DNA of 64,000 nt from Promethearchaeati archaeon SRVP18_Atabeyarchaeia-1 (GTDB lineage Archaea > Asgardarchaeota > Atabeyarchaeia > Atabeyarchaeales > Atabeyarchaeaceae). Location of the stretch: contig CP147779.1 in assembly GCA_037308085.1 (NCBI GenBank), positions 2,368,001-2,432,000 on the forward strand, given 5' to 3'. The position numbers and the translations under genes were made by a program. The number at the start of each line of letters is the position of its first letter. Position 1 is the stretch's first letter. Of the stretch, positions 44,179 through 55,717 are shown piece by piece. The notes below the pieces were generated by a model. It ran no database searches. It was not told the origin of the DNA and worked only from the letters and a program-made list of their open reading frames with translations.

Positions 44179-44865
44179 TTAAGGCTGCGAGTGACCTTCG
44201 TTACTTTTCATTTCCGTTGCCGCTTTCTGGAGATAGTTCTTTCCGTATGAGCTGTAGAGAATCGCCAGAGGGTTATGTCCCGTCACCCGATCCTTGGCCG
44301 CCAAGATTGTTATGGGTGCCTTGGAGCATTTAATGAAGTGAGTATCATGCCCTACGCAGAGTCCGAGAAGTATGTTGAGTTCCGTGCCAGCTTTCTCAAG
44401 GACAAGCGCCTGTCCCACAGGATTGCATGCGCAGTATCCTATTGCGTATCCAGTTTTGGATATCCCCTGATACTCTGTAGGTACACCGACATCGCTCTTT
44501 GAGATGGCGCCAAACTTACAGTTGACTGAGCAAACCTCAAACCCCAATCCCTCGAGGAACTGGGCGACAAGCGCCGCCTCATCCTTCAGACCGACGCAAA
44601 AAGCGAGACCCAGCTTCCCATACCCCATGAGCTTGGCAAACTCGGCGATCTCGCGCAGCCTCGGCCATTCCGCGTATCCAGCTGCCTCCACGATTCCAGC
44701 ATTTACCGCCAACCTCCTCTCATCATGCTTATCATAGGCCAGTAGTGATTCCTTAACTGAGTTGCTCTGCCCAACCATAGGGCAACCCTCTGGACCCTTC
44801 CTGCTGCCTGATACGCAAGACATGGTCCTACAATACGCGCACCTCGCCGCCAACTTCGTCACCAC
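44179..44865 (-). CDS. DUF1847 metal-binding protein
   Basis: KLGLAFCVGL, CNPVGQA, GLCVGHD, KDRVTGHNP. Confidence 0.88.
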   Translation of the reverse strand: MVTKLAARCAYCRTMSCVSGSRKGPEGCPMVGQSNSVKESLLAYDKHDERRLAVNAGIVEAAGYAEWPRLREIAEFAKLMGYGKLGLAFCVGLKDEAALVAQFLEGLGFEVCSVNCKFGAISKSDVGVPTEYQGISKTGYAIGYCACNPVGQALVLEKAGTELNILLGLCVGHDTHFIKCSKAPITILAAKDRVTGHNPLAILYSSYGKNYLQKAATEMKSNEGHSQP

Positions 44866-44924
44866 GCTTGGATCCTTCTAGTCTGAACCTCATTTTGGAC
44901 GCTTCCATATATCCGGAGTGCTTT

Positions 44925-45248
44925 GTGACGTCCTCCAACGACTGAGGTCGTTGGCTTCCACCACTTTTTTGTTCTCGCCTCGTCGCCGAGGTCGCAGGTT
45001 CGCACGTAGCTTTCAGAAGGTGTTGCAAGGTTCACGGCTCTCGAGCCCTTCACACGTTGCGGCACGGCCGTGTTGGGCAGAGGCTTGTTCATCCCGTGTT
45101 CTGGCTGCGTCAACTTTCGGCTCGTTGATTCGAGTCCAGCCCGCCCCCTCAGGGAACTTCGCCCCTTCGGGGTGCACCCAGTCTGCTGGGCTACCAGCGT
45201 TGGTTGGTGCCCCCATTGGAGACTTACGCTCCAACACCCAGGCACCCA
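44925..45248 (-). ncRNA. Candidate ~320-nt structured RNA inside E1
   Basis: TTTATAT TATA at 45271-45277 (minus); several stems (GGUGCC/GGCACC, UUGGAG/CUCCAA, CCCAG/CUGGG, CCCC-GAA-GGGG, CCUCG-GCGA-CGAGG). Confidence 0.6.
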
Positions 45249-45367
45249 TTTAAATATGCCCGCAGATAGCATATAAACTTACAAGACAAGGGGGTTGTCC
45301 AGCCTGAAGGCTGGCACGCAATTCAACCAACCGCTGAAGCATGTTGGGTTTCTTGCTCAACCTATTT
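44925..45367 (-). mobile_element. Non-autonomous IS200/IS605-type element E1 with RNA-like cargo
   Basis: Left end TTAG|...AAAC-hairpin; right end GAAG-CCAACGAC CTCA GTCGTTGG...TCAC|; no credible ORF. Confidence 0.8.
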
Positions 45368-45671
45368 CTAAAATACCTAGCTAGAGATTATGCCAGTATG
45401 ATCCCAAGGCATCAAGTGCGTGACGCTTCGCTATTGCTCGCCGGTTGCGATGGGCTTTTCGAACTGGGTTGGATGGTAGAAGGGCACAACTAGAGGAAGG
45501 CAATCGAGGTAGCAAATGAAGGTTTGTCGTGCTCCTCTGGTTACAGTTGTTTTGAGGGATCAGTTTTGGAAGGCAAAGGCACAGGACGTTCAACGGGACA
45601 TGGGGAGTATTTCCCAGTGCGGCAACCATTAAGTAAGGGTCGGAGCTCATAATCTGAGCCGCCCCTTGATG

Positions 45672-45699
45672 TGTTACAATGTAACATAACCCTTAAATA
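45672..45699 (+). promoter_or_regulatory. Palindromic operator plus TATA of the tusA-dsrEFH operon
   Basis: TGTTACA-A-TGTAACA (45672-45686) just upstream of CTTAAATA. Confidence 0.6.
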
Positions 45700-45747
45700 T
45701 CAGCATTAAAGCATAACTTTGATAATAGTGATGAGTTAGCGCCTAAC

Positions 45748-46035
45748 ATGATGATTGAGAGTTATGGAGAATTATCGATGGCAAGCAAAACTAGCCAAAG
45801 TTCGGCCAAGGCGGATTTGGTTATCAACGCCCTTGGTCAGAAATGTCCCATGCCGATCCTGACCCTCAAAGACAACCTAGAGAGCATCAGGGTGGGTCAG
45901 ACGGCAGAACTGATCGGGGACGACATCGGCTCCAAGACAGATGTCCCCGCCTTCTGCAAGCGGACCGGCCAGGAACTTCTTAAGACTTGGGAAGACAACG
46001 GGACCCTCCATTTCCTGATCAAGAAATTGAAGTGA
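45748..46035 (+). CDS. tusA: TusA/SirA sulfur carrier
   Basis: GQKCPMP, D.G...DVPAFC. Confidence 0.88.
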   Translation: MMIESYGELSMASKTSQSSAKADLVINALGQKCPMPILTLKDNLESIRVGQTAELIGDDIGSKTDVPAFCKRTGQELLKTWEDNGTLHFLIKKLK

Positions 46036-46056
46036 ACTACTCATGGCAAGTGGGCG

Positions 46057-46428
46057 GTGAACATAGCATTGGTGTCCTTTGCTTTCCTGGTCTGCACAGG
46101 TCCGTACACCTTCCAGAACTCAGATACGCTATACGCGATGATCGACGCCCTGAAGAAGCTCGGGCATAGAGTCTCGGGAGTCTTCTTCTATATCGACGGC
46201 GTCATAAACGTCTCCAAGAAAATCAAGGTAGAAAAAGGAGTCAGGGATCTGCCTGCGAAGCTTCAGCTCCTAGTCGAGAGCGGCATTCCAATTGTAGCAT
46301 GTAGCGCATGCTCGGACTACCGAGGTATAGACAATGACAATATTGCCAACGGAGCCCAACTCGGAGGACTCATGACCCTATCAGACTACATAGAGGAGTC
46401 CGACAAGATTGTGGTGTTTAGTCTATGA
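46057..46428 (+). CDS. dsrE: DsrE/TusD-like sulfur relay protein
   Basis: GPY, VFFYIDGV, CSAC..RG, LGGL. Confidence 0.85.
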   Translation: MNIALVSFAFLVCTGPYTFQNSDTLYAMIDALKKLGHRVSGVFFYIDGVINVSKKIKVEKGVRDLPAKLQLLVESGIPIVACSACSDYRGIDNDNIANGAQLGGLMTLSDYIEESDKIVVFSL

Positions 46429-46434
46429 GATCAG

Positions 46435-46714
46435 GTAACCTCTTCCCATGGCTGAAGCTTGTGGGCTTGTTTCCGTTTCGTTTGTTGGTCGCCGCCCGTC
46501 GCCGGGTCGGTGTTTCGGAAGCCACGCCGGTGGGGGGAAGTGGCGACTCCCGGGCTTTCGCGCGCCGCGCTTTTCCAGCCCGCTCACCTCGCCAGACGGG
46601 GTGGGTTACGCTTCGCGTCTCCGTGCTCGGAGACCACCCTCTGCGCCGGGAAACAGAGACTCAGGCTTTGCATTGGGGGCGCCACCCCGCGCGGTCTCGC
46701 CCCGGCGCCAATGC
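46435..46714 (-). ncRNA. Candidate ~280-nt structured RNA inside E2
   Basis: TTTAAGTA TATA at 46731-46738 (minus); stems GCAUUGG/CCAAUGC, GUCUCCG/CGGAGAC, UGGCGA/UCGCCA, CGGGCU/AGCCCG, CCCG-GCGA-CGGG. Confidence 0.6.
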
Positions 46715-46803
46715 TAGGTACGCGGGAGACTACTTAAACCCGCCATTTGGCGACGGCAGTTCCTCCCACGCCTAAAAGGCGTGGGCTTCCCTGAGACAGA
46801 ATG
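46435..46803 (-). mobile_element. Non-autonomous IS200/IS605-type element E2 with RNA-like cargo
   Basis: Left end TCAC|14 nt|GAAG-CCCACGCC TTTTA GGCGTGGG; right end CAAG-CCCACAAGC TTCA GCCATGGG...TTAC|; lies between dsrE and dsrF. Confidence 0.8.
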
Positions 46804-46813
46804 GTGAATCCGT

Positions 46814-47179
46814 ATGGCAGGGCACAAGGTGGTCATCGTTTTCAATAAGGCTCCTTATGAGCGAATCTCAGTCGTTGAGGGGTCTAGGGCGATTGGCGGA
46901 GTAGTGACAATGGGGACTGAAGGGATTGCGGTCTTTGTCGACGATGGTGTGTGCGCATTGCTGAAGAACCAAGATCCTGCTGGTTCTGGTCTTGAGTCAA
47001 TCCTAAGCTGGTTGAAGCTTCTTGAGAAGAGCAGAGTTCCGATGAAAGTTGTGCGTGAGTCTTTGTCTGAGAGAGGTGTCGACGAGTCCGATTTGCTGGA
47101 ACTGGGTGGCCTTGAGGTGATTTCGAGGGATGAGCTTGGGAAGCTAGTGCTTGGCTATAATTCAGTCTTCGTGATCTGA
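46814..47179 (+). CDS. dsrF: DsrF/TusC-like protein
   Basis: KAPY, EG.RA, FVDDGV.ALLKNQ, ESLSERG. Confidence 0.82.
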   Translation: MAGHKVVIVFNKAPYERISVVEGSRAIGGVVTMGTEGIAVFVDDGVCALLKNQDPAGSGLESILSWLKLLEKSRVPMKVVRESLSERGVDESDLLELGGLEVISRDELGKLVLGYNSVFVI

Positions 47180-47181
47180 AT

Positions 47182-47532
47182 TTGGTGGATTTGGAGGGAG
47201 AGAACGTGATCGTATATCTCTTGGGCAAGAGTCCTTTTGAGTTCAGGTCGATTGAGACCTACCTCGACATGGGAGAACGACAGAGTGAGGCGGGAGTAGA
47301 CGTCAGGATTGTCCTACTGCATGGAGCCGTGCTTGCGGCAAGGAAGAACAACCGGTTCGAAGATCGGCTTAGAAGACTTGCTGATGCTGGCGTGAGAATA
47401 TACCTTCGCAAGGAGGACCTGGAAGCTAGGGCCATTAACAATGAGTCATTGAGCAGCATAGGTTCGCCAGTTGACACGGTGGAGATCATGAAATTGGCGG
47501 CCGAGTCCAACACACTTGTCTCAGTCATTTGA
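47182..47532 (+). CDS. dsrH: DsrH/TusB-like protein
   Basis: KSPF, LLHGAV, EDLEARA. Confidence 0.78.
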   Translation: MVDLEGENVIVYLLGKSPFEFRSIETYLDMGERQSEAGVDVRIVLLHGAVLAARKNNRFEDRLRRLADAGVRIYLRKEDLEARAINNESLSSIGSPVDTVEIMKLAAESNTLVSVI

Positions 47533-47592: not shown

Positions 47593-48144
47593 ATGCTGTT
47601 AACGATTGAAGAGGACATGCGAGAGTTTCCCGTTACTATCGTAGCCAATGGATATAGTGAGGAGGCTGACAAGATGACAGAGACAGGTCGTGAGCTGGAT
47701 GAAAAGGACATCCTGATCCTGAAACTCCTGCAAGAAGACGGTAGAACGCCCTACAGGAAGATCGCCGAGAGACTTGGAACGACAGTGATGACAATTACCC
47801 GCCGAGTCAGCCAGATGAGAAAGGCAGGCGTCATAAGGAAATTCACCGTGATACTTGACCCCGAATCGCTTGGCAAGCGGTACAGCATATGCCTTTTCGT
47901 AAGGGTAGATGATCCGTCGGCCATTAATGCTGTCTCATCCGCTCTATCTAGTAACAAGGATCTCTGCTATGTTCACCATGTCACTGGCGAATTCGAGATT
48001 GCGGCAATGGCAAGATGCCGAGACAAAGAAGAGGCGTCAAGACTAATAGAGCGAGTCGGAACGATAAAGGGCGTCGTGAAAGTTGTCCCCCATAGTGTGC
48101 TAAAAACGATCAAGGAGGACCTTGACATCGAACTCGCCCAGTAA
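47593..48144 (+). CDS. Lrp/AsnC transcriptional regulator
   Basis: LDEKDILILKLLQEDGR, HVTGEFE; start possibly 47674. Confidence 0.9.
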   Translation: MLLTIEEDMREFPVTIVANGYSEEADKMTETGRELDEKDILILKLLQEDGRTPYRKIAERLGTTVMTITRRVSQMRKAGVIRKFTVILDPESLGKRYSICLFVRVDDPSAINAVSSALSSNKDLCYVHHVTGEFEIAAMARCRDKEEASRLIERVGTIKGVVKVVPHSVLKTIKEDLDIELAQ

Positions 48145-54555: not shown

Positions 54556-54720
54556 AAAAGATATTGACACAATGTCTGACATACTCCCACAGCTAAAGCT
54601 TGTGGGGTTCTGAGGCCGTTGTCGTCCGCAACGTTGCCTCTTGGGGCGTGCCAGTGCTGCCCTCCAGCGCATCCCTGTCTACGCTGGATCGAGAGACGCA
54701 CTCATGGCGCAACGCTATGT
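54556..54720 (-). ncRNA. Predicted TnpB omega/reRNA (scaffold plus ~20-nt guide from flank)
   Basis: Established TnpB architecture; stems such as UCCAGCG/CGCUGGA over the tnpB 3' end; guide ACAUUGUGUCAAUAUCUUUU. Confidence 0.6.
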
Positions 54721-55717
54721 TGAACGACGCGTTGACGTCGGCGTTCTCAACGTGTCCACACGACGGACACTTGAAGTGCTTGCCGCTCCTGGTGCCCATG
54801 TGACCGCACCTTGAACATGCCCTGGATGTGTAGGCTGGTTCAACATAGGCGACGGGTACTCCTTGCAGCCTGGCCTTGTACCCCACAAACCCCTGCAGTT
54901 GGTGGAATGACCAGCTGTTCAAAGAATACCTGAACGACTTTGCCTGCCTTCGGCTTCCGCGGATGCCTTCCAGACGTTCGAGCTTAATGCCTCTGCCAAG
55001 CGATGCAGCAAGACCAACTATCTTCCTGCTAACCTTGTGGTCGAGGTCCCTGATGATCCGGCTCTCTCTATTCTTGATCCGCTTGAGCGTCCTGTACCGT
55101 CCCTGTTTCTGAAGCTTGCGGCGGATGCACTTGTACTTCTTGTGGACGTGTTCTGCCTGCTTTCCGAGCTTCCACACTTTGCCAGTCTCTGGGTCAGATG
55201 CCACAGCAATGTGACCGGTGGTGTTGAGGTCGACGCCAACATACCCCCTCGGCTCGAAGCGCTCCTTCTCTCGGACGGAGACGCATATGTAGGCGTACTC
55301 GTTGCCTATCTCTATCTGGTTGACCGTCTCAAAGTCCGGGAAATGCTCGCACGCCAAGGCGAGTCTCAGGCATGGAATGGTTATGGTGCGCTTCTCCTTG
55401 TCCGTCTTGATGCCTTGCCCTGGCACAGTGAGCTTAATGTTCCGGACCTTCCTGATCTTCTCGTTTCTGCCGTATTTCCTTAGTATCTGGTTTGCTATGC
55501 TGGTCTTGAGGCCTATGTGCTTGACGTCTTTTGAGGAGAAGGTTCGGTGTCTGACCCCGAAGTCTGCTACCTGCCTCGCTTTCCTCAGTTCCTCGCAGAA
55601 GTCTCTGCCATGCTTGACCTTGAGGGTTAAAAGCATGTTACTATCTAAGGCTTGGCCATATTTATATTCGCCATTCATCCCACCCCTAAAGGGCGTGGGC
55701 TTTCTGGCTGATCTTTT
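54576..55717 (-). mobile_element. IS200/IS605 family (IS1341-type, tnpB only) element
   Basis: Left end TTAC|...AAAG-hairpin; right end GAAC-hairpin...TCAG|; no target duplication. Confidence 0.92.
54593..55636 (-). CDS. tnpB: RNA-guided endonuclease TnpB
   Basis: RuvC GVDLN, KLERL, NADVNAS; CSRC/CPSC zinc finger; stop codon lies in the right-end hairpin. Confidence 0.92.
   Translation of the reverse strand: MLLTLKVKHGRDFCEELRKARQVADFGVRHRTFSSKDVKHIGLKTSIANQILRKYGRNEKIRKVRNIKLTVPGQGIKTDKEKRTITIPCLRLALACEHFPDFETVNQIEIGNEYAYICVSVREKERFEPRGYVGVDLNTTGHIAVASDPETGKVWKLGKQAEHVHKKYKCIRRKLQKQGRYRTLKRIKNRESRIIRDLDHKVSRKIVGLAASLGRGIKLERLEGIRGSRRQAKSFRYSLNSWSFHQLQGFVGYKARLQGVPVAYVEPAYTSRACSRCGHMGTRSGKHFKCPSCGHVENADVNASFNIALRHECVSRSSVDRDALEGSTGTPQEATLRTTTASEPHKL

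Follow-up and report, generated by a model that had tools for sequence, protein, structure and literature searches.

A protein-less IS200/IS605 element with a putative structured RNA cargo in an Asgard archaeon

IS200/IS605 transposable elements move as single-stranded DNA, and in IS608 the cleavage sites lie 19 and 10 nt from the end hairpins and are matched to four-base guides in the pairs TTAC/AAAG and TCAA/GAAT (PMC3201880). Protein-less derivatives of this family, the PATEs, have also been described, including PATEs that encode omega-RNAs used in trans (PMC10055086). For archaea, one study describes an expressed PATE RNA and tnpB-overlapping sotRNAs with a right-end UUCA loop, and reports that the RNA HgcC carries the right-end tetraloop (PMC4615843). 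The paper on the host lineage of the DNA considered here (PMC11529989) does not mention TnpB, IS200, IS605 or MITEs.

The DNA analysed is a stretch of 64,000 nucleotides from the Asgard archaeon Promethearchaeati archaeon SRVP18_Atabeyarchaeia-1 (the window; positions below refer to it unless they are given for the genome). On its minus strand lies a protein-less element of 443 nt, E1 (44925-45367), which is almost certainly a non-autonomous IS200/IS605 element of the PATE type. The explanation that we favour, and consider probable when taken as a whole, is that E1 can be moved by a TnpA transposase and carries a structured RNA as its cargo, with a putative omega-RNA role. The separate steps differ in strength and are graded below, each in its own place.

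Ends of E1 and their target specificity

Read on the minus strand, the left side of the locus consists of TTAG, the cleavage point, 16 nt, AAAC and a bulged hairpin; the right side consists of GAAG, a hairpin, 6 nt and TCAC, with the second cleavage point directly behind it (Table 1). Cleavage thus falls 20 nt 5' of the foot of the left hairpin, and E1 ends 10 nt 3' of the foot of the right one. Both subterminal palindromes are on the minus strand and there are no terminal inverted repeats. Insertion is 3' of a specific tetranucleotide and produces no target-site duplication, as three copies follow TTAG or TTAC and end in TCAC, and no part of their flanks is directly repeated. The left hairpin type is also found in a full IS of this genome. 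The right hairpin of E1 has no bulged base, whereas the left hairpin and the ends of the parent element have one; compensatory changes across families affect four of the six pairs examined in its stem. The positions and motifs given for E1 in the preliminary description were all correct when the sequence was read again, and its proposal that both ends follow the IS608-type guide/cleavage rule is borne out by the pairs TTAG/AAAC and TCAC/GAAG, by the spacing and by covariation across elements.

Table 1. Features of the E1 locus (window positions)
Feature	Position	Strand	Basis or remark
Left cleavage/target tetranucleotide TTAG, outside E1	45368-45371	minus	homology to the G001 copies begins right after the target tetranucleotide
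Left end of E1, 77 nt	45291-45367	minus	matches left end of full tnpA-tnpB element
Left guide AAAC, adjoining the left hairpin foot on its 5' side	45348-45351	minus	motif position and covariation
Left-end imperfect palindrome: foot CCAAC/GTTGG, one bulged A, TTCA loop	45327-45347	minus	
TATA-like box TTTATATG	45270-45277	minus	invariant in three genus-level copies, also in full IS
Non-coding structured cargo RNA, about 320 nt	44925-45247	minus	compensatory pairs, no conserved ORF, RNA contig
GNRA-loop hairpin CCTCG-GCGA-CGAGG	44978-44991	minus	common to E1, E2, G011 and G141 elements
Right guide GAAG, adjoining the right hairpin foot on its 5' side	44955-44958	minus	
Right-end palindrome: perfect 8-bp stem, CCAAC/GTTGG-type foot as at left end, CTCA loop	44935-44954	minus	
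Right cleavage tetranucleotide TCAC, final bases of E1	44925-44928	minus	flanks of three copies diverge beyond it
20-nt flank, would-be 3' guide upon read-through	44905-44924	minus	sequence as read; function putative
DUF1847 gene, neighbour and not part of E1	44179-44865	minus	Pfam PF08901, E 9e-51

Does E1 have relatives that define its boundaries? It is present as a single copy in its own genome (G000). A DNA search of the genome of a sister species (G001) found two copies that are 82-83% identical to E1 across the entire 443 nt. The sequence that aligns with E1 begins directly behind TTAG or TTAC and ends with TCAC; the sequences on either side are unrelated. One of these copies has the target TTAG, while the other has TTAC together with a guide that ends in G instead of C, which is a compensatory change. 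Both are protein-less, occupy different loci and share the right-end form of E1. The preliminary description had named the lack of any other copy with these ends as an argument against its reading, and such copies exist: the full IS in the same genome and the two mini copies in G001. Because of the G001 boundaries, the compensatory change and covariation throughout the genome, the ends of E1 are more than a chance arrangement.

Further matches to the ends are of several kinds. About 14 additional sites in the 2.8-Mb genome, mostly behind tnpB genes, show the combination of GAAG, a CCAAC hairpin and TCAC (about 0.01 sites expected by chance, by our own estimate). The left end of E1 is 86% identical to that of the full element at genome position 1573219, 91% identical to that of an element in G002 and 76-80% identical to that of an element in G011. 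In contigs from wetland metagenomes, the depth of the left-end region is about 10-20 times that of its surroundings, as expected because this repeat is common to many elements. One wetland run (X3) contains a 94% identical variant of E1 with another left flank (matching window 44945-45375), as well as a right-end variant that ends in TTAC; these variants suggest further E1-type insertions in related strains. An exact 22-mer from the interior of E1 matched only a G001 contig among the genome contigs, and had no match among the metagenome contigs. The intergenic stretch 45368-45760 contains no repeat found elsewhere in the genome.

The rule that links guide and target can be followed through the whole genome, where left ends fall into the classes TTAC/AAAG, TCAC/GAAG and TTAG/AAAC. 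In a wider set, TTAC is accompanied by AAAG (or by GAAG/AATG), and TTAG or CTAG by AAAC. The final guide base is C in all five elements whose target ends in G, and most elements with a target ending in C have G there. Thus base 4 of the target covaries with base 4 of the guide, and base 2 of the target with base 1 of the guide; exceptions are few and are mostly T-G wobbles. The window also holds a tnpB-only IS200/IS605 element (about 54576-55717, minus strand) with a TnpB ORF of 361 aa at 54593-55678. Its left end follows TTAC and has the guide AAAG, and its right-end pair is TCAG/GAAC, with TCAG as the last bases; both ends fit the code.

Which transposase might move E1? A full element at genome positions 1573219-1575061 encodes TnpA (131 aa) and TnpB (453 aa), and its right end is composed of GAAG, a CCAAC hairpin and TCAC, so that it has the same end types as E1. 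Its own target, CTAG, departs from the rule by one mismatch. The tnpA gene (1573331-1573726) matches PF01797 at 1573364-1573714, and its product matches solved IS200/IS605 transposases (2ec2, E 1e-33; IS608 TnpA, 2a6m, E 6e-28). It is an intact Y1 transposase that retains the HUH and Tyr motifs. In total, three TnpA and about 46 TnpB matches were found in the genome. Mobilisation of E1 in trans by TnpA is plausible because an intact Y1 transposase is encoded in a full element with the same end types. To judge from its sequence, therefore, E1 may still be mobilisable, and the earlier suggestion to this effect is a reasonable one, given intact ends and an intact TnpA with matching ends.

Direct traces of movement were looked for in two ways. 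The DUF1847 flank was not found in 41 relatives by a DNA search with 2.5 kb around E1, and the DUF1847 protein was not found in G001 or G002, the two closest genomes, by a protein search; there was therefore no orthologous empty site to compare. The assembled contigs of two wetland DNA runs, a form of data in which rare variants are lost, contained no donor joint and no circle junction.

The cargo of E1 and related RNA-only elements

The TATA-like box of E1 (45277-45270) points toward the right end of the element and toward DUF1847. The same sequence, TTTATATG, lies around the start codon of tnpA in the parent element and has been preserved in E1. A conserved region rich in helices starts about 25 nt past the box, near 45247, and runs to the right end, which would place the transcription start near 45247. 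Local hairpins in this region show compensatory pairs among the three genus-level copies, in which conservation is higher in the interior than in the left end. A single-sequence fold of E1 gave a z-score of -0.8 and is not informative.

With regard to expression, a 179-nt contig from a Nanopore RNA library (a metatranscriptome) matches 45029-45207 without a single difference, entirely within E1; it has a depth of 2, covers only the interior of the element and possibly derives from contaminating DNA. The same run has no contig over the genes that neighbour E1. The contig is thus a weak hint that E1 is expressed.

By its sequence, E1 has no conserved ORF and no capacity to encode a protein. Indels between the copies are not multiples of three and shift the frame, and a tblastx search with E1 returned nothing beyond the left end. 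Antisense ORFs of about 105 aa were considered as coding candidates and rejected, as they align only where the DNA is nearly identical. The window has no Rfam match at gathering scores and E1 has none at E values up to 10. Between the TATA-like box of E1 and DUF1847 there is no U-run terminator.

A second protein-less IS200/IS605 element, E2, of 369 nt, lies at 46435-46803 on the minus strand. It is situated inside an operon, between two dsrE-like genes (46057-46428 and 46814-47179) and antisense to them. Its left end has the pair TCAC/GAAG and its right end is TTAC. At least eight copies of the E2 family, with 73-84% identity, are present in the genome. An ORF of 116 aa over E2 (46425-46775) belongs to no Pfam family and is probably spurious. 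The genes around E2 belong to a sulfur-relay cluster (45748-47532; TusA, DsrE, DsrE-like and DsrH), which is oriented divergently from DUF1847 and has an Lrp/AsnC regulator (47593-48144) behind it; E1 and E2 are located in or beside this cluster.

E1 and E2 have little sequence in common, but the same layout is found in the part next to the right end of both: CTTCC is followed by a hairpin with a GNRA loop and an A-rich linker, after which come the guide, the hairpin of the right end and the cleavage site. The GNRA-hairpin motif occurs in this genome only in E1 and the E2-family copies, plus two unrelated sites. An 18-mer of this motif is found at 119 metagenome loci and 23 viral loci, none of which is homologous by blastn or nhmmer. 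A covariance model built from the 3' half of the E2 family (R1) matches E1 at 44925-45073 with an E value of 0.02 over the whole genome. It also matches elements in G011 (about 2e-4), G002 and G141, none of which has an adjacent tnpB.

The G011 genome, from another Asgard family, has at least 12 copies of related protein-less elements of 400 nt, most of which break contigs. One helix of these relatives shows five double compensatory changes. Loci with the same class of RNA are L057, L062, L063, L065 and L066 in G011, L246 and L249 in G141 and L245 in G002, and all of these protein-less elements end with GAAG, a hairpin and TCAC, or with an E2-type end.

Two further loci carry ends of the E2 type. 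The locus L258 (G000:C1:1955202-1955850, minus strand) is a tnpA-only element, the right end of which is nearly identical to that of the E2 family, and it is likely to be the source of the E2 ends; it has only part of the E2 cargo, with 46 bits over 134 nt in model R1. At G000:C1:1319875-1320034 there is a micro-element of 160 nt, in which E2-type left and right ends are almost directly joined and no cargo is present.

Could the RNA of E1 act as an omega-RNA? The orientation of E1, its TATA-like box and the missing terminator fit an RNA that ends at the right end of the element and takes its guide from the flank, which starts with AAAGCACTCC. The 20 nt that had been put forward as a would-be guide (44924-44905) are indeed the true flank sequence, and they overlap the TATA-like box of DUF1847 (44907-44912). 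The expected TAM of any TnpB that uses the RNA of E1 would be TTAG. Homology between the scaffold and the 3' region of a tnpB was examined and not found: no RNA related to that of E1 is linked to the tnpB 3' ends in G000, G001, G011 and G141, and blastn, nhmmer and covariance model R1 located relatives only in protein-less elements of G000, G002, G011 and G141. The 3' ends of the tnpB loci in the parent IS, in G002 and in G011 resemble E1 only in the right-end hairpin.

In addition, the related RNAs ride on elements with three targets (TTAG, TTAC and TCAC), which are too many for a single TnpB with a fixed TAM. The omega-RNA interpretation is weakened because there is no tnpB-linked RNA, no Rfam match and a set of three targets set against a fixed TAM. 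We regard it as a tentative proposal, with somewhat less than an even chance, that the RNA of E1 is an omega-RNA-like scaffold whose flank guides a TnpB supplied in trans. Since no cognate TnpB was found, a role of 44924-44905 as a TnpB guide, with TTAG as TAM, can be put forward only as a conjecture.

A broader proposal is that E1, E2 and their relatives, which come from at least five Asgard genomes in three families, form a distinct protein-free class of IS200/IS605 elements. The sole cargo of such a class would be a promoter-driven structured RNA of about 250-320 nt, never attached to tnpB. This RNA would be a mobile guide cassette for a nuclease acting in trans, either a TnpB without a similar RNA or some other effector, or it would have another role in the maintenance of the elements. 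This proposal is speculative and we hold it to be doubtful.

Proposed mechanism and alternative explanations

The favoured explanation can be laid out as a series of steps. TnpA would cut E1 out of single-stranded DNA and insert it on the 3' side of TTAG. From the TATA-like box, a structured RNA of about 320 nt would be transcribed toward the right end and, with no terminator on the way, on into the flank; transcription of the cargo is partly shown because of the conservation of structure and the one RNA-library contig. The RNA scaffold, with the flank as its 3' guide, would then direct a TnpB acting in trans to the empty site left after excision (TTAG followed by AAAGCAC), and the action of TnpB at this site would lead to the restoration of E1. 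If DUF1847 is affected at all, this would be a side effect of read-through.

The relationship between E1 and DUF1847 had been a central point of the preliminary description. The distance of about 60 nt that it gave between E1 and the start of this gene on the same strand corresponds to a gap of 59 nt to a GTG start codon (44865). About 44 nt ahead of the GTG, this gap contains the box ATATAT (44912-44907); it also has a Shine-Dalgarno-like sequence, GAAGGATCC. From these motifs, DUF1847 probably retains its own core promoter, with E1 just upstream. An RNA-library contig covers 44300-44476 of the gene, and none of the RNA-library contigs links E1 to DUF1847. The earlier claim that a promoter in E1 points into DUF1847 is therefore no more than plausible: the TATA-like box is invariant, there is no U-run and an RNA contig lies inside E1, but the gene has a TATA-like box and a Shine-Dalgarno-like sequence of its own. 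Read-through from E1 into DUF1847 is possible, while a regulatory link between the two is unproven. E2 lies antisense within an operon, so elements of this family do not in general drive a gene downstream of them. For DUF1847 itself, nothing of consequence follows.

How else might E1 be explained? It could be a mobile, or once mobile, element in which the interior acts at the level of DNA, either as folded single-stranded DNA that brings the ends together for TnpA or as a spacer, with an incidental transcript. The single-stranded movement of IS200/IS605 elements (PMC3201880) speaks for such a role, as do the position of the helices on the same strand as the end hairpins, a covariation that would fit DNA equally well, the lack of any TnpB-linked relative of the RNA in the genomes searched and the occurrence of the class with three target specificities. 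However, the distance between the TATA-like box and the structured part downstream of it is conserved in both E1 and E2 copies, the interior is covered by an RNA-library contig and the cargo runs from left end to right end in every family. Several conserved pairs are, moreover, G-U/G-T wobbles, which are weak in DNA. A DNA-level role of the interior is a reasonable alternative to the omega-RNA reading, although we consider it unlikely. Quite unlikely, in our judgement, is the possibility that E1 is a dead relic, with ends that look right and can no longer be moved and with a functionless RNA. Three observations would suit a relic: there is one copy of E1 in its genome, contigs of two wetland metagenomes show no polymorphism for its presence or absence, and its right hairpin has no bulged base. 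Yet the same form of the right end is found in the two G001 copies at other loci, and both guide/cleavage pairs and both hairpins are intact, as is the matching TnpA. The 94% identical copy with another flank in a wetland metagenome, and an interior that is better conserved than the left end, also argue against a relic.

It could also be asked whether E1 serves mainly to drive or attenuate DUF1847, as a portable promoter or leader. Its place 59 nt upstream on the same strand, with no U-run before the gene, would fit this role; all three genus-level copies lie just upstream of ORFs on the same strand, and part of DUF1847 is covered by an RNA-library contig. By contrast, DUF1847 has a TATA-like box and a Shine-Dalgarno-like sequence downstream of E1, the RNA contigs leave E1 and the gene unjoined, and E2, with a related RNA, is antisense between dsrE-like genes. 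The G001 copies are followed by short ORFs that have been assigned to no family, and insertion after the T-rich TTAG would by itself favour promoter regions. A main role as a promoter or leader for DUF1847 is thought very unlikely. The explanation that we favour is a TnpA-movable PATE-type element with a structured RNA cargo.

Relation to described systems

The locus is a clean natural case in which the guide/cleavage code of TnpA has been reprogrammed. The variants of the code in this one genome (TTAC, TCAC and TTAG on the left, TCAG on the right), each accompanied by a corresponding change of guide, help to predict insertion sites and TnpB TAMs in Asgard archaea. The genomes of these archaea contain RNA-only IS200/IS605 elements that are easily mis-annotated as small ORFs, as in the case of the 116-aa ORF over E2. 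If it is true that the RNA of E1 guides a nuclease in trans, E1 would be a compact and naturally mobile guide cassette.

Among known RNAs, HgcC (Rfam RF00062) has a consensus whose 3' part resembles an IS200/IS605 right end, with a UUNA-loop hairpin, AGGAGG and TCAG, in agreement with what PMC4615843 reports on its tetraloop. One G011 relative (L057:1469-1630, minus strand) has a weak match to HgcC (17.2 bits, E 0.13), besides a weak match to RAGATH-28 in Rfam. An assignment of E1 to HgcC was rejected, since E1 itself has no match at E values up to 10 and the 17.2 bits of the G011 relative compare with a gathering score of 50. HgcC is also shorter, at about 130 nt versus about 320 nt for the RNA of E1.

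The ends of E1 are most readily compared with IS608 of Helicobacter pylori (TnpA structures 2A6M and 2VJV). Both have subterminal hairpins with a four-base guide 5' of each foot, cleavage sites about 19-20 nt 5' of the hairpin at the left end and 10 nt 3' of that at the right end, and the same first three bases in each pair (TTA/AAA and TCA/GAA); both systems use a Y1 HUH transposase. The difference lies in the fourth pair, which is swapped on the left (TTAG/AAAC in E1, TTAC/AAAG in IS608) and changed on the right (TCAC/GAAG in E1, TCAA/GAAT in IS608). Unlike IS608, E1 has neither tnpA nor tnpB, and its host is an Asgard archaeon.

In its lack of protein, E1 resembles the haloarchaeal PATEs, which include the RNA VNG_R0052 (PMC3119063, PMC4615843). 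They too are IS200/IS605 derivatives with a left and a right end and a UUCA-type loop in the right-end hairpin, and they are transcribed as non-coding RNA, as E1 may be. In the haloarchaeal PATE described in PMC4615843 the left and right ends are fused. By contrast, E1 has about 300 nt of cargo in addition to its ends, with conserved helices and a TATA-like box that belongs to the cargo.

A similar situation exists in Geobacillus stearothermophilus, where PATE-like and tnpB-only elements (PMC10055086) are non-autonomous, as E1 is, and have ends in common with those of one TnpA. The covariance models in that study came from omega-RNAs that overlap tnpB, whereas no tnpB-linked relative of E1 was found. 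In the Geobacillus elements the RNA ends at the right end, the flank serves as the guide and the TAM is the TnpA target, an arrangement that may also apply to E1. TnpA and TnpB are proposed to act in trans on the Geobacillus elements, as they are here for E1.
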